Source: a virus (taxonomy: Duplodnaviria > Caudoviricetes). Taken from it: a stretch of DNA of 44,788 nucleotides. The notes below the pieces were generated by a model, which saw only the letters and a program-made list of their open reading frames with translations, was not told the DNA's origin and ran no database searches. Both the position numbers and the translations under genes were made by a program. The DNA lies in the IMG/VR virus record IMGVR_UViG_3300020045_004347, positions 1 through 44,788 of that record; one strand, written 5' to 3'. Shown in pieces: positions 16,478-37,373 of the stretch (positions within the stretch are counted from its first letter, which is position 1; the number at the start of each line of letters is the position of its first letter).

Positions 16478-16963
16478 CTAGGCGTAAGACGCCTCTATAA
16501 CTGGTATGTGCGTGAGACTCTTGAGCTTGTCTTCCCGAAGCGCCTTCAGCTCCTCTATCCGACTTGATGTGAGGTGGTGAGTAACTTCCTGCCGAACTGT
16601 GCTTACCTTCCCGTGGCCCTCACGGTCGAGCAAATCCATAGCGGCCTTGGCTTGCAGGGAGATGTGCGCCGGAGTTGTACCGTCCACGATATTCACTAGT
16701 AACTGTGCTCCGCTTTCTGCCCCCTTCTTAATAAGGGCATTGATGTCAACTGCGCGTTCCTCGCGACGAGTGCATAGGGAGGCCAGATACTGCTTGAAGA
16801 CTGGGGAGTTACAGATGATCGACATCCTGCCTGGGGTCATATCGTAGTCGCGGGCGATGTCGATCTGCCTGTGGCCGGCGATCAGCCTGCGCGCGATCTC
16901 TTTCTGCCTCTCCCATAGATGGGTAATCGGCTGCTTTGGGACAGACCTTGTAGGGTGACGCAT
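16478..16963 (-). CDS. Putative terminase small subunit (HTH)
   Basis: RQIDIARDYDMTPGRMSII HTH; AAMDLLDREG; first gene of the late arm. Confidence 0.6.
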   Translation of the reverse strand: MRHPTRSVPKQPITHLWERQKEIARRLIAGHRQIDIARDYDMTPGRMSIICNSPVFKQYLASLCTRREERAVDINALIKKGAESGAQLLVNIVDGTTPAHISLQAKAAMDLLDREGHGKVSTVRQEVTHHLTSSRIEELKALREDKLKSLTHIPVIEASYA

Positions 16964-17315: not shown

Positions 17316-17331
17316 TGGCATGTGCCGTGCA
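17316..17331 (+). promoter_or_regulatory. Sigma54-like promoter candidate for the early arm
   Basis: TGGCAT-N5-GTGCA with exact GG-N10-GC spacing. Confidence 0.45.
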
Positions 17332-17395
17332 ACATATAAGGTATGACAACGGGCACCACCATCACAATGGTGTGAGCCATCCGTCCACCGCCAAA

Positions 17396-17407
17396 GTTCT
17401 TTGATAA
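17396..17407 (+). promoter_or_regulatory. boxA-like antitermination element
   Basis: GTTCTTTGATAA preceded by hairpin CACCAT-CACA-ATGGTG (17357-17372). Confidence 0.4.
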
Positions 17408-17489
17408 CCGTAGCTCCCAGCCCGCAACAAGACCGGTTCGCCACCATCGTATGGAGCGTGTTATTCGGGGCGGCTCATGGGGGTAAACA

Positions 17490-17768
17490 TCGGATATACA
17501 TTTGAATATGCCGCCATGTTTAAAGGAGACTTTACACATGAAGACAATTTCAAAACAAGATATCGTTTTACTCGCCGAATTAGAAAACGAATACAATGCA
17601 ATTTTCGACCGCGCCGTATATGATAATGAAATGTATTTGAAGTGGGTACAGAAATATAACACGCTCTTGTTGCGTTATGAGTTACCGCTCGACACCACAT
17701 TCGACGAATTTTCCGCACTTATGACTAAATAAACCATAATATGGCGGTATACTCAAGTGTATATCCGA
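17490..17768 (+). repeat. 31 nt inverted repeat pair (17490-17520/17738-17768) enclosing one ORF
   Basis: 27/31 Watson-Crick pairs, 3 G-U, 1 A-C. Confidence 0.92.
17538..17732 (+). CDS. Small acidic early protein
   Basis: AAGGAG SD; 64 aa; AT-rich. Confidence 0.75.
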   Translation: MKTISKQDIVLLAELENEYNAIFDRAVYDNEMYLKWVQKYNTLLLRYELPLDTTFDEFSALMTK

Positions 17769-17815
17769 ATGACGCTAATCGGTGGGATTGCGCGAGCCGG
17801 TTAGCGCCAGGGGAT

Positions 17816-18332
17816 GTCAAGTCCCGCAATAGACCTCTCTCCTTTACGGTAGTTATTCCAACAACCAATAAGGAGGCAGGACCATGGAACTTACAACAAT
17901 AGAAGTGACGTTTGCGAAAAGGACAGAAGCACAAGTACAGGCGAAAATGGCAACCAGCCACGCCGATGTGCCGAAGGTGACGGCGACCCTCGACTTCAGC
18001 GAGCTCTCTGAGCTTGAGGTGCTACAATGGGCTCAACGAGGGGTTATAATCAGTATGCAGAGTAAGCTCGACAGCGGTACGATTACGCTAGCCAGCCTGT
18101 CCGGTAAGGTTATCAAAGTGCCAAAGCCGGGGGATAGGAAGCGCCTGTCCGACACGGACAAGATCAAGAAGATGGTTGCAACGATACTGGGCGTCGATGT
18201 GAAGGATATAACGCCGGAGCAACTGGCCGCAGTGCTGGGGAAGGCAATGGGCGGTGCTACGCCCGACAACGGCGAAGAGTAACACAGAACCACGAGGCCA
18301 CGAGTGGAGAGAGGTCGATTGAGGGACTTGAC
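17816..18332 (+). repeat. 27 nt inverted repeat pair (17816-17842/18306-18332) enclosing one ORF
   Basis: 25/27 Watson-Crick pairs; G-A and A-G mismatches flank a 4 bp helix. Confidence 0.92.
17884..18282 (+). CDS. Early protein, paralog of 23546..24004
   Basis: AAGGAGG SD; shared TIEV, KPG..R.R.S..DKIKK and EQ/DQ.AA motifs. Confidence 0.8.
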   Translation: MELTTIEVTFAKRTEAQVQAKMATSHADVPKVTATLDFSELSELEVLQWAQRGVIISMQSKLDSGTITLASLSGKVIKVPKPGDRKRLSDTDKIKKMVATILGVDVKDITPEQLAAVLGKAMGGATPDNGEE

Positions 18333-18339
18333 GACGGAC

Positions 18340-18587
18340 GTTCAATAGGTTGGTAGAGGTTCGGTCTACACGAAAGGAGGCCGGACTATGGCAAAGGAAA
18401 TAGTAACATTCACAGTAAGCATTGAAGTAGATACAGAAGAAGAGAATAGTGGTGCTAGTTGGTATGAGATGTTCCTTTCGGAATTAGAATATCAGATGGC
18501 GGAGAAAGGTTACGCCATACACGATACTTATTACGATGTAGAAGAAAACTAACCAAACCAGACCGAGCCTGTATCAACCTATTGAGC
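18340..18587 (+). repeat. 28 nt inverted repeat pair (18340-18367/18560-18587) enclosing one ORF
   Basis: 24/28 Watson-Crick pairs, 3 G-U, 1 G-G. Confidence 0.92.
18388..18552 (+). CDS. Small, very acidic early protein (54 aa, not in ORF track)
   Basis: AAGGAGG SD; MAKEIVTFTVSIEVDTEEENSG...YYDVEEN. Confidence 0.8.
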   Translation: MAKEIVTFTVSIEVDTEEENSGASWYEMFLSELEYQMAEKGYAIHDTYYDVEEN

Positions 18588-18660
18588 AGCGACGAACGGC
18601 TCGTGCCGGAACGGCGGAGTATGCGTTACACTTTCGGCACTGACGACCGCAAGGTCGCCA

Positions 18661-18690
18661 CTAACCATGCGAAGATTGCACAATACACTA
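18661..18690 (+). promoter_or_regulatory. Dispersed operator-like motif copy
   Basis: CTAACC ATGCGAAGATTGCAC AATACACTA. Confidence 0.7.
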
Positions 18691-18729
18691 ACGGCACTAC
18701 GTGCCGACTAACGGAAGGAGTACCAGAGT

Positions 18730-18912
18730 ATGATAATACGTTTCGTAGTAGAGATAGAACTCCCTGATGACGATGAGCTCCAGCAGGAGGGTTTGCTGGC
18801 TGTCCTCAGTGCGATGGAAAACGAAGCCGCTAAGGCAAATCTTGACCTGTACGACTCCCGCATCGAAGATGCAGATGGAGATGTGCTAGCGTGGGAGGTA
18901 TCGCTAGGTTAA
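18730..18912 (+). CDS. Small, very acidic early protein resembling 18388..18552
   Basis: AAGGAG SD; 60 aa. Confidence 0.75.
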   Translation: MIIRFVVEIELPDDDELQQEGLLAVLSAMENEAAKANLDLYDSRIEDADGDVLAWEVSLG

Positions 18913-18924
18913 GTAGGTGCCACA

Positions 18925-19236
18925 GGCACTATGCGAAGCGTAGGTGTAGGACACGTAGGCGTAGGACGTCTGTACCCCGCCATATGTTTCGTGTATGCCA
19001 AACGGCCTACGCTACCGTAGTACCTACACGTCAACCAGTAGGTGTAGTCTCTCCTATAGTGCTATACTCTTGTTCTTACTTTAAATATTTTTTTTTTTAG
19101 AATAATAGAGAGGCTCCAACTATAGGACACTGCACCACAGTGGGGAGGTGTAGGACATACATGGATACATGGAACCTATGCCAGGGTACACAATTCCTAC
19201 GCCTACACTTCCTACGCCTACATCACATAGGTTGCC
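18925..19236. other. Candidate replication origin: long imperfect palindrome around an AT/T-tract
   Basis: Arms carry repeated GTAGG/CCTAC; centre CTTTAAATA(T)n. Confidence 0.6.
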
Positions 19237-19284
19237 GCTGAGCGGACTTGCCTTACTGCGGCAAACAACAGATTGAAATAAATG

Positions 19285-19313
19285 TTGACATCCATCGACG
19301 GACGTGATATGTT
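19285..19313 (+). promoter_or_regulatory. Sigma70-like promoter
   Basis: TTGACA-17 nt-TATGTT with TG extension and A-rich upstream sequence. Confidence 0.75.
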
Positions 19314-26960: not shown

Positions 26961-27209
26961 ATGGACTTTGTGGATGCTGCTAATTACGGCGACGTAGCAA
27001 TAAAACCTTGCCCATTCTGTGGTAAAGTAGATGCACTGAAGTTAATAGATTCAACTGAGGTGTATCCGGAAGATAGAGACGAATCTTTTGTGATGTATCA
27101 AGTCGTCTGTGACGCCTCGACTGACGCCTGTGAGGCTGGTTGCGGTGCTTGCAACGGGTGGCAACGTAGCCAAGCTGAGGCCATCATTAACTGGAATATA
27201 CGAAACTAA
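26961..27209 (+). CDS. Lar-family (restriction alleviation-like) Zn-ribbon protein
   Basis: KPCPFCG..VVC..CGA..EAIINWN. Confidence 0.75.
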   Translation: MDFVDAANYGDVAIKPCPFCGKVDALKLIDSTEVYPEDRDESFVMYQVVCDASTDACEAGCGACNGWQRSQAEAIINWNIRN

Positions 27210-29667: not shown

Positions 29668-29882
29668 ACATACATGACCTAAAGACCAGCATCTCAGAAA
29701 TGTCTGACGAGAGTATCCTCGAAGCAATTCGCCTCCTCCGCCACTCTCGCACAACCGAGGACGTTGTGCGAGTCGTCAAGGTGAAGGCCGCCGCGAAGAA
29801 GGAAGACGATATGGTGGCTAAGCTGATGAAACTTGCAGGGGGAAAGGACGCCCTTGAGAAACTGCTCGCCGGCCTTACCTAA
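29664..29882 (+). CDS. Hypothetical helical protein
   Basis: GGAGG SD; 72 aa. Confidence 0.65.
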   Translation: MNIHDLKTSISEMSDESILEAIRLLRHSRTTEDVVRVVKVKAAAKKEDDMVAKLMKLAGGKDALEKLLAGLT

Positions 29883-29908
29883 CCATGCAATTCCCGCACA
29901 ATCAACTA
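29879..29908 (+). promoter_or_regulatory. Dispersed operator-like motif copy upstream of the ParB-MTase gene
   Basis: CTAACC ATGCAATTCCCGCAC AATCAACTA. Confidence 0.7.
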
Positions 29909-29925
29909 TGAAAGGAGTACCAACT

Positions 29926-31347
29926 GTGGCAACTTGCCCTAAGTGTTTTAAAGACCTACCCCCCGAAGCGAAGACCTGCACCGACTGTTACGACGCCAAT
30001 GGTAACGCTATTAAGAAAGCCCTCGCGGAGTATGTAGACCGAAGGGAAATCCGAGTAGGTGAGCGTTTCCGCACTGAGTACAAAGACATCGAAGCATTAG
30101 CCGCCTCTATAAAGAACTTCGGTCTTCTCCAGTATCCAGTCCTCGACCAGGACAACAACCTCGTAGCCGGTGGGAGGCGCCTTCAAGCTATGGAGGCACT
30201 CGGCTGGACTAAAATCCCCATCACACGCAAGAGTGGCGTCTCGGAGCTGCGCCTAAGGGAGATGGAACTTGAAGAAAACATTCAGAGAGTTAACCTTACG
30301 TGGCAGGAGGACACTAAACTCCGCCAGCAGATCCTTAAGATCAAGCAGGAGATATACGGAGTCAAGGGTGCAGGAAAGAGCAGCACTGGTATTTCAGCTA
30401 ATGAGATCGCGGTGGGAATGGGAGAATCTCCATCCAGTTTCTCCGCAGATGTCCGTTTGGCGGAAGCTATGGATGTCATTCCTGGCCTCTCGGATTGCAA
30501 GGATAAAGCCTCCGCCTTCAAGATGATGAAGCAACTCTACGAGAAGCTACTCGTGGATGAACTGGAGACTCGCCGTCAAGACTCCCCCCACACCCTTTCG
30601 ACTGCCGTCACGAAGGCAGATGCTTGGTTCAAAATCGGAGACGCCATCACAGAGCTGGAGCAGACAACCGAAAACCAAGGTTGGGGTTTCATAGACGTAG
30701 ACACCCCCTACGCAATAGACCTCATGAACATCAAGAAAGGCGACAGCGATGATCTCCTCATCAAACACAACTACCTTGAGTGGACGCCAGAGAACTATGT
30801 TCGAGACTGCACGAGAACGGCAAAAGAACTTTACCGCTTGGCCGCGCCTGACTGTTTTATGGTCTGGTGGTTCGCAATCCAGTGGTATCAGCCTCTCTAC
30901 CAGCTACTTACACAATGCGCTGAGAAGAACCCAGAGTTCTCTTGGAATGTAAGACCCGTACCTGGTGTATGGTATGCTAAAGGAGGTAGTCAAACCAATG
31001 CACCTGAAACTAACTTGGCCAGTTCTTATGAAGCCTTCTTCATCTGCTCAAAAGGTAAGCCTGCTATCCAGCAGCGAGGCCGTGCCAACGTGTTCGAGTT
31101 TCAGAAGCTATCTCCAGACAAAAAGATTCACCCAACTGAGAAGCCTATTGAACTTTATGCCGAGCTTCTACGTACGTTTGCTCGTCCAAGTACTCCCTGC
31201 TACAGTGCTTACTTGGGGAGTGGTGTTGCTATTAGGGCGGCTCTTTCGTTAGGTATGCAGCTTGAAGGGCGAGACCTTAATGAGGAAGTTAAGAAGAGGT
31301 TCCTTTGCAAAGTACAAGAGGAGAATCCAAATGATAACGCCACTTAA
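29926..31347 (+). CDS. Zn-ribbon/ParB-like/HTH/amino-methyltransferase fusion
   Basis: CPKC..CTDC; LAASIKNFGLLQYP..AGGRRL; EENIQR; DTPY, HPTEKP and YLGSG; GTG start after AAGGAG. Confidence 0.85.
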   Translation: MATCPKCFKDLPPEAKTCTDCYDANGNAIKKALAEYVDRREIRVGERFRTEYKDIEALAASIKNFGLLQYPVLDQDNNLVAGGRRLQAMEALGWTKIPITRKSGVSELRLREMELEENIQRVNLTWQEDTKLRQQILKIKQEIYGVKGAGKSSTGISANEIAVGMGESPSSFSADVRLAEAMDVIPGLSDCKDKASAFKMMKQLYEKLLVDELETRRQDSPHTLSTAVTKADAWFKIGDAITELEQTTENQGWGFIDVDTPYAIDLMNIKKGDSDDLLIKHNYLEWTPENYVRDCTRTAKELYRLAAPDCFMVWWFAIQWYQPLYQLLTQCAEKNPEFSWNVRPVPGVWYAKGGSQTNAPETNLASSYEAFFICSKGKPAIQQRGRANVFEFQKLSPDKKIHPTEKPIELYAELLRTFARPSTPCYSAYLGSGVAIRAALSLGMQLEGRDLNEEVKKRFLCKVQEENPNDNAT

Positions 31348-31681
31348 AGTAGATTTCGATGCTATCGAAAAGTCCAACGAGGAACCTTGTAAAGGACTTT
31401 GCTTCCGTGGTTACACTAATACGCATTGGTTTGGAGATAAGTTTCGTGTAACTAACGAACTCCGCCTACTGAAAAAGCGCTCTTGCCCGGGATGTGCTCA
31501 GTGTAGTTACTTAACAGAGGAACTCCAGTCAAATGTTATTGTGCTTACTCCGGAAATAGAACACGGAAAGCTATACGAACTGAGAGTAACTAACGTATCC
31601 CGTGACTACGAGTCTGGTATAGTAGATGATTGGAACGTAGAGTTTTGCAAGGTGCGGGAGGAGAATCCAAGTGAACCATAA
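31331..31681 (+). CDS. Hypothetical protein
   Basis: LLKKRSCPGCAQC; RDYESGIVDDW. Confidence 0.7.
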   Translation: MITPLKVDFDAIEKSNEEPCKGLCFRGYTNTHWFGDKFRVTNELRLLKKRSCPGCAQCSYLTEELQSNVIVLTPEIEHGKLYELRVTNVSRDYESGIVDDWNVEFCKVREENPSEP

Positions 31682-32156
31682 CCACTACATGCTGCAAGCC
31701 CGTGACTTTGCTGTTCACTCCAACTGCTTACGACGCCGCATCGGAGTTGTGTTCCGCTACCCAGGCTTTATGTTTACCGGAGCTAATGCACCAACGGTAA
31801 AGTGCCGCGCCTGTAATCGTGCTAAGGGGGACTGTCCTGCTATTCACGCGGAGGTAAAGACTCTCCTACTTGCTGGGAGTTTCGCAACACGACCTAACAC
31901 TGCGCTGTACATCTGGGCAGAGATACCTTGCGTGGCTTGCCTTTCGTTTATCGCGGAGTACACGGAACACAACTGTAACTACATACACTGCCTAACTCAA
32001 GCGAGCTACGCCAAGGAATACCCCAACGTTCTTGCTTACACTGAGTCCATAGCAGTCCGCCACGCCTACGCCTTAAAGCTAGGCATAACTATTTACGAGC
32101 ATGATGCTCAAGAACTACTCCGGCCAGTGGAGACCAAACATGAACAGCTTCATTGA
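31671..32156 (+). CDS. dCMP deaminase-like protein
   Basis: SNCLRRRIG, HAE and PCVAC zinc-deaminase motifs. Confidence 0.85.
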   Translation: MNHNHYMLQARDFAVHSNCLRRRIGVVFRYPGFMFTGANAPTVKCRACNRAKGDCPAIHAEVKTLLLAGSFATRPNTALYIWAEIPCVACLSFIAEYTEHNCNYIHCLTQASYAKEYPNVLAYTESIAVRHAYALKLGITIYEHDAQELLRPVETKHEQLH

Positions 32157-34839
32157 TCTACCAGACTTAACAACCACAGGTCTCAATGTAATAAAGCCTA
32201 ACAGTCGAATCTGCATCTTAACCGACTACCCTTCCAACGACGACGCTAGGAACGGGCGTGCATTCAGTGACGCAGCTGGGCAACTCCTTACGATCGCCCT
32301 CAGCCAGAACGGTATTACGCTGGCCGAGTGCTCGGTAGTGTACGTTATCCCTGAGCCGCAAACCTACGCAACTCTCGCACCGATGTGGTCGCCGAAACAC
32401 GGCTTCACCACTCTCGGTAACGCCAACATCGAGATCGTAAAAGACGCACTCACTCGCATAAACCCCAATGTAGTGTTTGCACTTGGCGAAATCTCCTTGC
32501 AAGCCATAACAGCTAAGCACTCTATAACAAAGTGGAGAGGCTCCATACTGGAGAGTAGCGTTAAGGTAGGCCAGAAGGTTATCCCAACCACTGCCCCTAG
32601 GGAGTGCGTGAAGATGTACCTTTGGCGGTACTTCCTAGCTCAGGACGCAAAGAAGCTCTCGAAGGAGATCTACTCACCTGCCATTAACCTACCGGCGAGG
32701 AACCTCCGTATCGAGCCTAGCTTCGCCGAGGCTATGTCTTATATGATGGCTATCAAACTGAGGGATGTATGCAAGATTGCGGTCGATATTGAGTGTATAA
32801 AGGGGTGTGCTGAGAAGGGCATCACCTGCATCTCGCTCGCGATCAGCCCGCTGGACTGTATGTCCATACCTTTCGACAACCGCTGGAGTGAGCACGAGGA
32901 GCTTGAGCTCTGGAAGATGTTAGCCGAAGTGCTGGAGGATAAAAACATTGCGAAGATCTATCAGAACGGAATCGACTTTGATACTGTCTATCTGCTGGCT
33001 GTACATAATATTTTCCCAGGTGGTTTTCTGCATGACACTATGGTTAAACATGCACTCAATTATCCCGATTTTCCTAAATCTCTTGCTTTCCTTACAAGCA
33101 TCTATACTGACGAGCCTTACTATAAAGACGATGGCAAGGAGGGAAAAGTAGGCAGCGGACAACAGAGAGAGTTCTTCATCTATAACGCTAAGGACTCAGC
33201 GGTTGACTTTGAGATCAACAACAAAGTAGATGAGGAGTTACGTAAGTACGGCAACGAGGAGACCTATAAGTTCCTCACGCGTCTAGCCGAACCCCTTCTG
33301 TACATGCAACTTCGAGGGGTTAAGGTAGACCGAGCTGGTATTAAGAAGCTCGCTATTGAGGCGGAGGCTTCTATCATCGAGAAGCAACATCAGCTGGACT
33401 TTCTCGTAGGTGATCGGCTACCGTTAAGCACGAAGGCCCAACGTAAAAACTACGAATACGAACGCCTGAACCCCAACTCCACAAAGCAATGCATTAACTA
33501 TTTCTACAACCTACTAAAGATGAAACCACAAACCAAGACAAGTAAAGACGCAACAACTAAGGAGCGCAAAACAACTGTTACGACCGACACCAAAGCTATG
33601 GGGCGACTCTATCGGATGTACCGTAACGAAGAGACGCTGCTCGTTAAACAGATCCGAGGGATTCGCAAACTAAAGGGCACCTATCTGGATATGAACATTG
33701 ATAGTGACGATCGGCTCAGGTGTCAGTTTCGTATCGCAGGTACTGTTACAGGGCGACTCTCGAGTTCCGCTACTATTTTCGGCACTGGTAGTAACATGCA
33801 GAACTTGCCCTTGACGTTCAAGGAGTTCTTAGTCGCAGACGATGGCTATATTCTCTGTGACCTAGACAAGGCACAGGCCGAGTGGGTAGCTTCCGCCTAC
33901 ATCTTCAACGATGCCAATATGATCCAGGCGGTTGAGGATAACGCTGATATTCATATCCGAACTGCGGCGATGATGTTTAAAGCGCCTGAGAGCGTAATCA
34001 AGAAGGAAGACTCTTACTTAGGAGGTTCGACTGATGAACTCTGGATTGCGGAACAGCGCCAGAAGATGCTTGAGGAGACTGGGATCGACGTTTTGCAGTA
34101 CGGGCCGTTACCCAATATGTCTATGCGACAGTCGGGTAAGAAGTGCAATCACTCCTTTAACTATGGCCTTTCCCCTCAAGGTTTTAGTATCCAGTATGAT
34201 ATGCCCTTACCGTTTAGTAAAAAATGCCACGCACTTTACCACGCGGGGTATCCTGGTATACACCACGGACACAAACGGATAGAGGCTGAGATCGTTAACA
34301 CAAGAACGCTTACTAACCTATTCGGAAGAAAGAGGCGCTTCTTAGGCCGTATCGAAGACAGCCTATACAAGGCTGCGTACTCTTATAAACCTCAGAGCAC
34401 AGTCGGCGAGCTTCTAAATCGCGGTATTGTAACTACCTACAACGATCAGTTCGACCCGGCAAAAGCATCAGTGATGCGGCCGCAGGAAATTCTAAACCAA
34501 GTACATGACAACCTTCTCTTCCAATACCCTATACGTACCGAGGAGGAGATAGAAAACTTCGCACACTGTATAATGCGGACCAAAGGGAATCTTGACATCC
34601 CACTGACCGCCAACGGACGCACCTTCGTAATCAAAACCGACGGGAAGATTGGATTCAACGGGAAGATAATGGAGAAGATAGACCTCTCTTCTTACGACGC
34701 TTGCCTCGCTAGCGTAAAGAAGGGAATCGACACTCTCCGAACCAACGCCAATAATGCTAATAATAAAATCGACAAACTCTTAGAGGAAATCGACGAGTTA
34801 GAAGGAGATGAAGATGAACTTGATGGTGAACTTGAATAA
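32140..34839 (+). CDS. polA: Family A DNA polymerase with N-terminal UDG-like and 3'-5' exonuclease domains
   Basis: DIE, QNGIDFD and YNAKD exonuclease motifs; TVTGRLSS, DKAQAE, RQSGKKCNHSFNYG and VHDN polymerase motifs. Confidence 0.93.
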   Translation: MNSFIDLPDLTTTGLNVIKPNSRICILTDYPSNDDARNGRAFSDAAGQLLTIALSQNGITLAECSVVYVIPEPQTYATLAPMWSPKHGFTTLGNANIEIVKDALTRINPNVVFALGEISLQAITAKHSITKWRGSILESSVKVGQKVIPTTAPRECVKMYLWRYFLAQDAKKLSKEIYSPAINLPARNLRIEPSFAEAMSYMMAIKLRDVCKIAVDIECIKGCAEKGITCISLAISPLDCMSIPFDNRWSEHEELELWKMLAEVLEDKNIAKIYQNGIDFDTVYLLAVHNIFPGGFLHDTMVKHALNYPDFPKSLAFLTSIYTDEPYYKDDGKEGKVGSGQQREFFIYNAKDSAVDFEINNKVDEELRKYGNEETYKFLTRLAEPLLYMQLRGVKVDRAGIKKLAIEAEASIIEKQHQLDFLVGDRLPLSTKAQRKNYEYERLNPNSTKQCINYFYNLLKMKPQTKTSKDATTKERKTTVTTDTKAMGRLYRMYRNEETLLVKQIRGIRKLKGTYLDMNIDSDDRLRCQFRIAGTVTGRLSSSATIFGTGSNMQNLPLTFKEFLVADDGYILCDLDKAQAEWVASAYIFNDANMIQAVEDNADIHIRTAAMMFKAPESVIKKEDSYLGGSTDELWIAEQRQKMLEETGIDVLQYGPLPNMSMRQSGKKCNHSFNYGLSPQGFSIQYDMPLPFSKKCHALYHAGYPGIHHGHKRIEAEIVNTRTLTNLFGRKRRFLGRIEDSLYKAAYSYKPQSTVGELLNRGIVTTYNDQFDPAKASVMRPQEILNQVHDNLLFQYPIRTEEEIENFAHCIMRTKGNLDIPLTANGRTFVIKTDGKIGFNGKIMEKIDLSSYDACLASVKKGIDTLRTNANNANNKIDKLLEEIDELEGDEDELDGELE

Positions 34840-34853
34840 TCGGAGGCAGCACT

Positions 34854-36041
34854 ATGGCGCGGAACTTCCCAGACTTTCTCACTGCCTACTTAAAGTATGT
34901 GGACAAGACAGAGAGTCCGACCAGTTATAACATCTGGACTTGCTTATCAATCATAGGAGCGTCGTTGCAAAGGCGCTGTTACTTGCAGTGGGGATACAAG
35001 ACCTTCTATCCCAACCTCTATGTGGTGCTTGTCGGCCCTTCGGGTTGTCGCAAAGGCACCGCTATGACGATCGGGAAGGACCTTATAAAACAGGTGAACG
35101 GGATCACCATCACTAGCGAGAGTGTAACTCGTGAAGCACTTATCAGAGATATGAGAGAAGGGGTAAATCAATATGTCGATCCAGGAGACGGGCAACTCCG
35201 ATATCACAGTTCAATTAGTGTGTTCTCAGAAGAACTCAGTGTTTTCCTTGGACAGCAAAATGTTAAGTTCCTTGCAGACCTTACCGATTGGTTCGACTGC
35301 CCAGATGATTGGACTTACCGAACAAAAGGAAGTGGAACTGATAAGATTGTTGGAATTTGTCCTTCGATCCTTGGTGCTACAGCCGCAGACTGGCTCAAGA
35401 GTATTCTTCCACAAGAAGCCTTCGGCGGAGGGTTTACTTCTCGAATTATATTCGTTGTAGAGGAGGAGAAGCGTCAACTCATCAGCAATCCCCACGTAGA
35501 CCCGGCGGTTAGTGCTATGCGGGAGGGACTGATAGCCGACTTGCAACAGATGGCACTGATGGCGGGGCCTTTTGTATTCCACGCGGAGACGATGGTTTTT
35601 TATGAAGACTGGTACCTTAAGCAAGCTAAGACGCCCGCAATCAAAGATCCCCTATTCGCCGGCTACTGTGAACGTCGCGCGACACACCTACTTAAGCTTT
35701 CGATGGTTGTTAGTGCGTCAAGGAGTAATAGCCGAATCATATACACTGAGGATATTCAAAGGGCGCTGTTGTTGCTGGAGGCCATAGAACCGAAGATGCC
35801 TCGTACTTTCCTCGGCCTTGGTAAGGCTAAATACAGTGAGATGACGGCGTTTATCTATGACTACATTCGGCGGCGGGGCACTGCTACGGGTAGTGAGCTC
35901 CTTAATAAGTTCCACCTCGACCTTGACGAGTACAGCATGAAGATAATCTGTGGGACGTTAGCAGCCAGGAAGGTTATCACAGTGCAGTTCAGCGCAGGGA
36001 ATGGAGATTTCTACTACACATTTAACGGAGGTGGGGAGTAA
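34854..36041 (+). CDS. DUF3987-family P-loop ATPase (putative replicative helicase)
   Basis: [27 protein letters not shown] and GFTSR motifs; wHTH-like C-terminus. Confidence 0.8.
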
Positions 36042-36526
36042 TGGGGGCTAAACAGTCAATTAAAATAGGGGACCAGTATAATAGATTAACAGTATTAGAA
36101 TACGCATACACCAAACCGCACCAAGGTAGATACTTTAAATGTTTATGCAGTTGCGGTAATATTAAAGTTATACGCAGTTCGCATATTACCAGTGGGCAGA
36201 CGTTTTCTTGCGGTTGTTTTCAAGTTCAAGGTAAGTACAATAAAGCTGTGCATCCATTATATAACTGTTGGAAATGTATGATAGCACGTTGTACAAATCC
36301 AGAACACCCAGACTACCATAGCTACGGGGGACGTGGTATAACTGTTAGTTTTCAGTGGCAGAACTTTGATAATTTCGTAGACGATATGTTTGAAAGCTAC
36401 GACCCGCAATTAACTATTGAACGTATAGATAATGAAAAGGGTTATAGTAAAGATAACTGTAAATGGGCTACGCGAAAAGAACAAGCGAATAATCGGCGAG
36501 GTACTTATCATGCAAAAAATGCATAA
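36041..36526 (+). CDS. HNH homing-endonuclease-like protein
   Basis: CLCSCG, SCGC, YGGRGI and [24 protein letters not shown] motifs; AT-rich. Confidence 0.85.
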
Positions 36527-36863
36527 CAACTTAACAGTGCGCCCAAAGAAATTACCGGGAATGACAGAGAAAAAACTATGTGCTTGCGGTGATATTTTTG
36601 TGACTGTAAATTATTTAGATAGTAAAATCTTTGAAGTATTTATACGGCTAGGAAAAGCCGGTGGCTGCGCAATGGCGCTTAATGAAAGTATAGGGAAATT
36701 AATTTCCCATTTCTTACAGGAAGGGGGTGACGTACAGACAGTCTTGAAGAGCCTAAGCGGGGTAAGCTGCCATCAGGCCTCAGCAACAGTTCCGAGTTGC
36801 GTGAGCGCAGTTGCGGAAGTACTGAAGGAACACATTAACCAAACAACTAAAAAAGGAGAGTAA
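36510..36863 (+). CDS. Stand-alone TSCPD domain (C-terminal module of class II ribonucleotide reductase)
   Basis: [45 protein letters not shown]. Confidence 0.8.
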
Positions 36864-36867
36864 AGTT

Positions 36868-37011
36868 ATGGGAGCAATTAGCCAGGGAAGTTTGGCAAAG
36901 AGTGCAGCATGTGGAGGTATTGAGATGGCGAATCGAGTTGACTTACTGCGTGGCACCCTCAGTAGTGTCGCCAACGCACTTGAGTCTACGCTGGAAAGGA
37001 TTGAGCTATGA
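36868..37011 (+). CDS. Hypothetical 47 aa protein
   Basis: AAGGAG SD; ATGA overlap with the next gene. Confidence 0.5.
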   Translation: MGAISQGSLAKSAACGGIEMANRVDLLRGTLSSVANALESTLERIEL

Positions 37012-37373
37012 GCCATGCGGACAACAACCCAAAGTCTGTATTCGGAGTTAAGAAACCACCGCTCGCTCTTGTACCTTCTCCGGCCCTTCTCCACTGTGCT
37101 ATGGCTTTCAAAGACGGCGCCACCAAGTACGGACCTTACAACTGGCGGGAAAAAGAAGTAAGCGTAATGGTGTATCTCAGCGCGGCGGATCGCCACTTGC
37201 GGCAGTACTTAGACGGAGAGGATATTGATAAAGTATCTAGAGTGCATCACCTCGGGCACGCTATGGCTTGCTGTGCGATCATCTTAGATGCTCTGGAGTG
37301 CCGTACTCTTATTGATGATCGCCCAAAGAAAGTAGACTTTACCGATCTATTAGAGCGTTTTACACAAGAGTAA
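37008..37373 (+). CDS. dATP/dGTP diphosphohydrolase-domain protein (DUF5664-like)
   Basis: KPPLALVP..GATKYGPYNWR..RHL..GEDID..HHLGHAMAC. Confidence 0.85.
   Translation: MSHADNNPKSVFGVKKPPLALVPSPALLHCAMAFKDGATKYGPYNWREKEVSVMVYLSAADRHLRQYLDGEDIDKVSRVHHLGHAMACCAIILDALECRTLIDDRPKKVDFTDLLERFTQE

Follow-up and report, generated by a model that had tools for sequence, protein, structure and literature searches.

A phage first transcription unit that may mimic a ribosomal RNA operon leader, with a boxA and long stems enclosing whole genes

The combination of a boxA with leader–trailer helices is regarded as machinery for making ribosomes. In bacterial rRNA operons, whose leaders carry boxB and boxA, boxA is described as recruiting Nus factors and aiding the looping of nascent RNA, and RNase III as cutting the leader–trailer helices around 16S and 23S rRNA (PMC10250234, PMC4807359); roles of boxA outside rRNA are also known (PMC5725501). 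Because widely spaced paired cuts are reported to be infrequent outside rRNA (PMC6212723), a stem layout of this kind around other genes is unusual. Phages supply two partial parallels. The early polycistronic mRNAs of T7 (PMC8708148) and SP82 (cited in PMC4838370) are cut by host RNase III, the T7 R1.1 site being a local stem of 49 nt in which a single strand is cut, and the nut sites of lambdoid phages (boxA-boxB with protein N) use a phage boxA to recruit host Nus factors. Stable RNAs with paired 5' and 3' ends have been described for processed hok mRNA and synthetic PTasRNA (PMC1635301), and the precursor of Bacillus subtilis scRNA receives two RNase III cuts (PMC1935012).

The phage locus described here shares with the bacterial rrn leader the succession of promoter, boxA and long-range helices (~25–35 bp, one to two mismatches), each enclosing a whole gene and following one another along a single transcript, and it shares the symmetric pair pattern of deltaproteobacterial 16S helices. 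It differs in that its helices enclose translated mRNA instead of rRNA, in that one phage boxA serves up to three stems, and in the placing of boxA, which usually lies inside the helix in host 16S leaders but usually upstream in the phages, 4–210 nt before the first arm. The phage unit works like an rRNA operon leader, yet is not a member of that class because the enclosed RNA is not rRNA. As in T7 and SP82, an early polycistron would be divided by host RNase III into shorter, protected messages; unlike those of T7 R1.1, however, the arms enclose a gene, and the cuts would leave both mRNA ends paired. The boxA resembles that of nut sites in its predicted recruitment of host Nus factors but is of the rRNA type and tied to gene-enclosing helices, and no N-like family was found among the scanned proteins (PHROGs, Pfam). 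Paired ends and stability would be held in common with PTasRNA, hok and scRNA, which are single noncoding or toxin RNAs, whereas the phage has tandem protein-coding units behind a boxA, with the Shine–Dalgarno sequence (SD) outside the arms. Helices that follow a boxA and enclose genes in phage mRNA are not described in the literature searched, which was covered at abstract level and for few subscription journals.

The locus lies in IMG/VR record IMGVR_UViG_3300020045_004347, all 44,788 nt of which were analyzed (the window). This is the complete, circularly closed genome of an uncultured phage (44.7 kb, with a 121-nt terminal repeat); its minus strand carries the structural and packaging genes and its plus strand those for replication. 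By large terminase (TerL), its nearest annotated phage is Desulfofustis phage LS06-2018-MD01 (32.5%), whose gene order is similar; because this is the closest annotated phage, we guess that the host is deltaproteobacterial. Of the 401 genomes covered in the chosen phylum, three had a TerL match; the best (41%, L264) belongs to a different prophage, which lacks the boxA pattern. The probable small-terminase product, our anchor, had no PHROG or Pfam match; it aligns with proteins that relatives encode upstream of their large terminase, and in phage MD01 the gene adjoining the large terminase is annotated as terminase small subunit. The stem cassettes lie directly beyond this gene, at the head of the plus-strand arm, and the stem-enclosed genes are called early, presumptively, because of that position only.

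Table 1. Features of the stem-bearing locus and its flanks, in window coordinates
Feature	Position	Strand	Remarks
Probable terminase small subunit gene	16478..16963	-	Divergent from the cassette unit; anchor for finding relatives
Candidate promoter, sigma54-like (-24/-12)	17316..17331	+	Pattern match; 80 nt before boxA
Small hairpin, boxB-like position just before boxA	17352..17378	+	Predicted fold
rRNA-type boxA, predicted NusB/S10 site	17396..17406	+	94 nt before stem 1
Stem 1, 5' arm	17490..17520	+	Predicted RNase III cut after 17506
ORF1	17538..17732	+	64 aa, acidic, no family
Stem 1, 3' arm	17738..17768	+	Predicted RNase III cut after 17753
Local linker hairpin between stems 1 and 2	17773..17806	+	Predicted fold
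Stem 2, 5' arm	17816..17842	+	Predicted cut after 17829; E. coli matrix prefers other register
ORF2	17884..18282	+	132 aa, conserved stem-enclosed gene of the family
Stem 2, 3' arm	18306..18332	+	Predicted RNase III cut after 18320
Stem 3, 5' arm	18340..18367	+	Predicted RNase III cut after 18354
ORF3	18388..18552	+	54 aa, very acidic, no family
Stem 3, 3' arm	18560..18587	+	Predicted RNase III cut after 18574
Fourth inverted repeat	18940..19221 (arms 18940-18996 / 19165-19221)	.	57-nt arms
Sigma70-like promoter, next unit	19285..19313	+	10/12 consensus match, extended -10

The initial annotation had described three consecutive genes, each looped out by its own long inverted repeat, and this description held in full: the arms were recovered at the same coordinates (31, 27 and 28 bp), every stem encloses an SD and a whole ORF, the SDs sit within the loops and outside the arms, and the three arm pairs have no sequence in common. 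Ten columns are not Watson–Crick pairs, six of them G-U on the plus strand—three G-U and an A.C at position 17 in stem 1, G.A at 11 and A.G at 16 in stem 2, and three G-U and a G.G at 17 in stem 3—with a mismatch at position 16 or 17 in each stem, as had been noted. The arms stand 192–463 nt apart with the ORFs between them, rather than forming local intergenic hairpins of the T7 type, and the stems are separated by linkers of 47 and 7 nt. When the region was folded (17340–19260), as had been proposed, most paired columns reached probabilities of 0.9–1.0, with 0.44–0.89 at the stem ends, and the plus-strand duplexes were 9–16 kcal/mol more stable than their minus-strand counterparts. All four plus-strand stems scoring at least 42 genome-wide fall within 17490–19221 (scores 57–79), and block-wise dinucleotide shuffles (n = 12) gave best scores of 36–54, reaching 50 once. 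The flank-duplex z was about −6 to −7 for ORF1–3 versus −1.2 to +1.7 for 19 downstream plus-strand ORFs. The three window stems are real and above chance.

Two features of this region, the boxA at 17396 and the fourth inverted repeat at 18940–19221, were absent from the initial annotation. The arms of the fourth repeat consist of short repeated words, its loop is noncoding, AT-rich and holds a T run, and its duplex energy is equal on both strands; it is likely a DNA element, separate from the RNA stems. Of the 21 clusters with room for such a repeat, 18 have one in the equivalent place after the last stem, and we regard the repeat as a candidate replication origin, ejection-stop or packaging signal.

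How widely does this layout recur? Our survey covered the region beyond the small terminase in 59 of 71 loci (those with at least 1,200 nt upstream), in seven further loci, of which L010 and L020 could be anchored only approximately, and in the window, giving 67 loci in 41 clusters. Stem detection was Watson–Crick-only and strand-symmetric, scoring G-U and A-C equally as mismatches, and enclosed ORFs were sought on the early strand only. Gene-enclosing stems were found beside the small-terminase gene in 29 of the 41 cluster representatives, window included: 38 stems altogether, with one in 21 clusters, two in seven and three in the window only. Their arms are mostly 23–32 bp long, the 5' arms ending 12–47 nt before the start codon and the 3' arms beginning 2–46 nt past the stop, with one at 112. 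Repeats numbered 91 in 160 kb of surveyed regions versus three in 231 kb of late-gene control, and none of 178 control early ORFs had a flank z below −3. The enclosed gene most often belongs to the ORF2 family, members of which occur in 32 of the 41 clusters; 26 of these 32 have a flank-duplex z below −4. Among the six misses, the stem of L009 lies farther from the stop codon and L050 is borderline; the stem layout is dispensable, as the ORF2 homologs of L026, L073, L087 and L088 have no flank duplex, L026 being among the closest relatives (TerL 60% identical). Most members of the large L070 cluster have a weak flank duplex.

Covariation between arms was sought in relatives. Six pairs with at least 60% identity yielded 15 compensatory, 16 wobble-type and 11 breaking changes, two columns mismatched in both and 127 unchanged; this support is weak because eight of the 15 compensatory changes come from one pair, likely through a 1-nt register shift, and because the arms were chosen beforehand as stems. 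When RNAalifold was applied to four homologous cassettes, the arms could not be aligned by sequence.

What do the stems enclose? ORF2 matched no family significantly in Pfam, PHROGs or PDB sequences and fell in no named Atlas cluster; its best PDB match is a designed helical protein (E 0.0013), and its AlphaFold model (pLDDT 80, pTM 0.50) reached a best Z of 3.8 among 48,161 chains. Searches with ORF2, alone or with homologs 64–80% identical to it, found no IMG/VR locus, and a single metagenome match proved spurious. ORF1 has one weak IMG/VR match, which lacks a stem. The other enclosed genes are mostly short (54–96 aa), none of 13 matching another, and homologs elsewhere of small enclosed genes lacked stems in four of four cases, so the stems are tied to the position behind boxA and are not carried with the gene. 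The earlier suggestion that the units are swappable cassettes is only weakly supported: one arm pair favors it, with related arms (5' arms 77% identical) around dissimilar ORFs in L083 (57 aa) and L085 (134 aa). Between 16900 and 19500 of the window there was no Rfam match at E up to 1 and no tRNA; the loops are filled by SD-led ORFs, not by rRNA.

The boxA pattern has a single match in the whole window genome, counting both strands. Of the 29 stem-bearing clusters, 18 have an exact copy no more than 400 nt before the first stem, against a mean of 0.09 and a maximum of two clusters in shuffled controls, and 24 have one when a single mismatch is allowed; late genes held three matches in 461 kb. 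The pattern was derived from these same phage loci and then tested on bacterial genomes. Its short form is present in 30 of 39 16S leaders (46 fetched, seven unusable) from the phylum of a deltaproteobacterial genome, a comparison group that is itself a guess, as the host is. Among 121 bacterial genome matches to a 19-letter form, 46 lie 48–335 nt before 16S or 23S rRNA, 14 run off contig ends, one precedes a CRISPR-like array and 60 are other; by Rfam, rRNA lay directly downstream in eight of 20. In phage MD01, the part scanned held neither the boxA pattern nor a gene-enclosing stem.

Several observations on boxA stand beside these counts. In 60 of the 121 genome matches the rRNA boxA word heads non-rRNA leaders. 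Several similar non-rRNA boxA leaders occur in Lachnospiraceae and other Bacillota, two of them near the pemK RNA motif, and in three bacterial contigs (L146, L165 and L132) a boxA precedes a long-range stem but no rRNA, two of these stems spanning an ORF. In the relatives closest by terminase (60%), L002/L026 and L001 (G407, G406), the sole boxA match is on the late strand.

Candidate promoters precede boxA. A sigma54-like pattern, built on the -24/-12 consensus, has four matches in the window genome and is in place, 73–88 nt before boxA, in the window, L027 and L031 (three of 24 boxA-bearing representatives); a sigma70-like site lies 48–116 nt upstream of boxA in 13 of the 24. A sigma54-dependent first promoter would, if real, be unusual for a phage. 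Elsewhere in the window, eight copies of a dyad motif with conserved flanks, TGCR-N5-YGCA, all lie on the plus strand (12710, 17155, 18668, 20891, 21729, 25845, 29886 and 36511), several just upstream of an SD, and are likely sites of a phage regulator or promoters; six relatives (L004, L010, L034, L040, L066 and L081) carry different repeated palindromes in similar places. The genes around the DNA polymerase (29833–37373), which include a ParB-N domain fused to an N6/N4 methyltransferase, a dCMP-deaminase-like protein, a TSCPD protein and a dATP/dGTP diphosphohydrolase, form a possible DNA modification cluster, and a Lar-like restriction alleviation protein is encoded at 26961–27209, between exonuclease and Sak4-like genes.

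Do the gene-enclosing stems act as RNA or as DNA? Coding-strand differences in the 38 enclosing stems comprise 85 G-U, 15 A-C and 25 other (P = 5e-13), where base composition predicts an even split between G-U and A-C; with the window left out, the counts are 80, 14 and 22. The 53 non-enclosing repeats have 73 G-U, 60 A-C and 182 other, and in the 19 same-strand repeats found after the last stem the corresponding counts are 40, 31 and 101, with no significant bias (enclosing stems versus neighboring repeats, Fisher P = 5e-5). Judged by sequence, the gene-enclosing stems are RNA elements because G-U so exceeds A-C on the coding strand, and the lack of bias in neighboring same-strand repeats argues against mutational bias as the whole cause. 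The enclosing stems are not strand-neutral, as the ends of a DNA inverton or transposon would be, and a comparison of 60 window proteins with PHROGs, in which many matched no family at all, found no recombinase or transposase family.

A common pair pattern runs through the stems. From 55 stems, 47 sharing no 11-mer were kept, and one false case involving a repeat arm was dropped, leaving 46. Their symmetric 22-column profile carries 7.32 bits versus 4.31–4.53 in eight column-shuffled sets; the dyad lies within 2.5 bp of the stem midpoint in 41 of the 46, and 42 have no more than two mismatches. The window stems (27–31 bp) exceed the ~22 bp of duplex expected of a substrate that RNase III cuts on both strands. 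The leave-one-out median P was 0.02, and the window stems gave 0, 0.02 and 0 (200 shuffles), their mismatches falling at positions that the pattern tolerates: A in stem 1, C and C' in stem 2 and C in stem 3. On 26 host 16S leader–trailer helices, which are mutually related and thus not 26 independent tests, the phage profile scored 2.15 versus −0.71, a value reached in none of 500 shuffles; most of these helices were placed at one register, where the center is likewise A-U. On 42 non-enclosing repeats it scored no better than on shuffles.

How does this pattern compare with known RNase III sites? We used a matrix of counts from 85 in vivo double-cleavage sites of Escherichia coli (PMC6212723, Table S4). 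It picks the register of the phage profile in 21 of the 46 stems, where about eight are expected and the shuffle maximum is 16, although in window stem 2 it favors another. The same register was found in 27 of 46 stems without the central pairs and in 28 with the proximal box only, the latter part scoring above 300 of 300 shuffles, both masks having been chosen after the profile was known. Positions C' and D' agree closely between phage and E. coli (at D', U-A 0.43 versus 0.45, A-U 0.26 versus 0.28 and G-C 0.04 versus 0.07), and the proximal box shows the expected two-fold symmetric preference at position D, for A-U or U-A and against G-C, under the mask picked post hoc. The mean best score of the full 22-position matrix was no better than that of shuffles (113 of 300 reach the phage mean) because A-U pairs (0.44) or mismatches (0.14) occupy the two central positions in place of the G-C/C-G of E. 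coli. For E. coli 16S, the known cut, which leaves 115 and 33 nt, comes second among the registers, 0.4 bit below the best; on E. coli 23S no well-scoring register was found. The 33-nt value is from PMC4838370, and in vitro work found the central positions between the cuts mostly unpaired (PMC6212723).

The reading that best accommodates these features is that the unit is a putative mimic of an rRNA operon. Transcription would start at a host-polymerase promoter near 17316; boxA would recruit the Nus complex, suppressing termination and holding each 5' arm at the polymerase until its 3' arm emerges, and each stem is predicted to close cotranscriptionally in a pre-rRNA-like fold. Host RNase III would then make staggered cuts at the stem centers (Table 1), with predicted products of 247, 491 and 220 nt, each closed by a clamp of 13–14 bp that pairs the 5' end and leaves two nucleotides overhanging at the 3' end. 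Folded alone, these products have their ends paired at 0.80–0.98, with about half of the SD-to-start region unpaired. That RNase III cuts the stems into single-gene mRNAs with base-paired ends is, on present evidence, what we consider probable, and the idea of rRNA-like presentation to RNase III raised in the initial annotation was partly strengthened, by the coding-strand G-U bias, the rRNA-type boxA and the dyad-symmetric, RNase III-like pair pattern. The paired ends are probably protected from decay. Least certain is the purpose, stability rather than a timed shut-off: the clamp may prolong mRNA life, uncouple the genes and boost the ORF2 protein together with lineage-specific small genes.

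A long stem need not be cut, because paired termini that stabilized a synthetic RNA in E. coli were unaffected by RNase III there (PMC1635301). The stems might accordingly form and stay whole, as end-to-end clamps or exonuclease barriers, with single-strand nucleases acting in the linkers and boxA serving antitermination only. The two linkers and the want of an E. coli-like G-C preference in the central pairs would suit such a scheme, but it gives no reason for a symmetric central pattern matching host rRNA helices as well as the proximal box of RNase III, nor for arm lengths clustering just above one RNase III footprint, and we think it unlikely, if the strongest of the alternatives. Nor is it easy, and here we are a shade more doubtful, to see RNase III cleavage as a shut-off timer that detaches or destabilizes the first messages after use. 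Cleavage by RNase III is reported to control mRNA decay, as for betT and the met operon, and both cuts fall outside the ORF, detaching it from its leader; yet in T7 such cleavage is reported to mature the mRNA and protect it (PMC8708148), and the predicted products would keep SD and ORF intact, with 10–24 bp of end pairing at the high probabilities given above.

RNase III leaves 5'-phosphate and 3'-OH ends, which a clamp would hold together, and the initial annotation had raised circularization. Ligation of the clamped pieces into covalently closed circular mRNAs is nonetheless very improbable: comparison of 60 proteins with PHROGs and of 30 with Pfam revealed no RNA ligase family, and the literature located on circular RNA offered no natural phage case. 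Least probable of all is a role for the arms at the DNA level, as sites of inversion or recombination, cassette ends, or ejection or packaging hairpins, with a G-U excess that reflects transcription-linked deamination of the coding strand, for although DNA-type inverted repeats such as the fourth occur next door and non-template C-to-T and A-to-G changes would, by reasoning, both yield G-U, the neighboring same-strand repeats show no significant bias (40 versus 31), the three arm pairs are unrelated, none of the 60 proteins compared with PHROGs matched a recombinase or transposase family, and boxA and the RNase III-like pattern would be left unexplained.

Taken at its broadest, the mimicry reading holds that throughout the phage family the first transcription unit is dressed up as an rRNA operon, and that the Nus antitermination/chaperone complex and RNase III are both hijacked for the production of long-lived single-gene mRNAs with clamped ends. 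The conserved protein would always be so treated, and lineage-specific small genes would gain a stem of their own once behind boxA, in a natural pre-rRNA-mimic expression system; for this full statement we see the balance as even. If it is true, boxA and helices around phage mRNAs would represent a novel way for a phage to take over its host and a natural mRNA stabilizer of a new class, a design that could be copied for the stabilization of heterologous mRNA. The 46 sequence-distinct stems would be predicted RNase III sites of non-model anaerobes, with an A-U instead of a G-C center, and as a set would make RNase III specificity outside E. coli directly testable. For the phages themselves, the design points to ORF2 as the gene most needed first.
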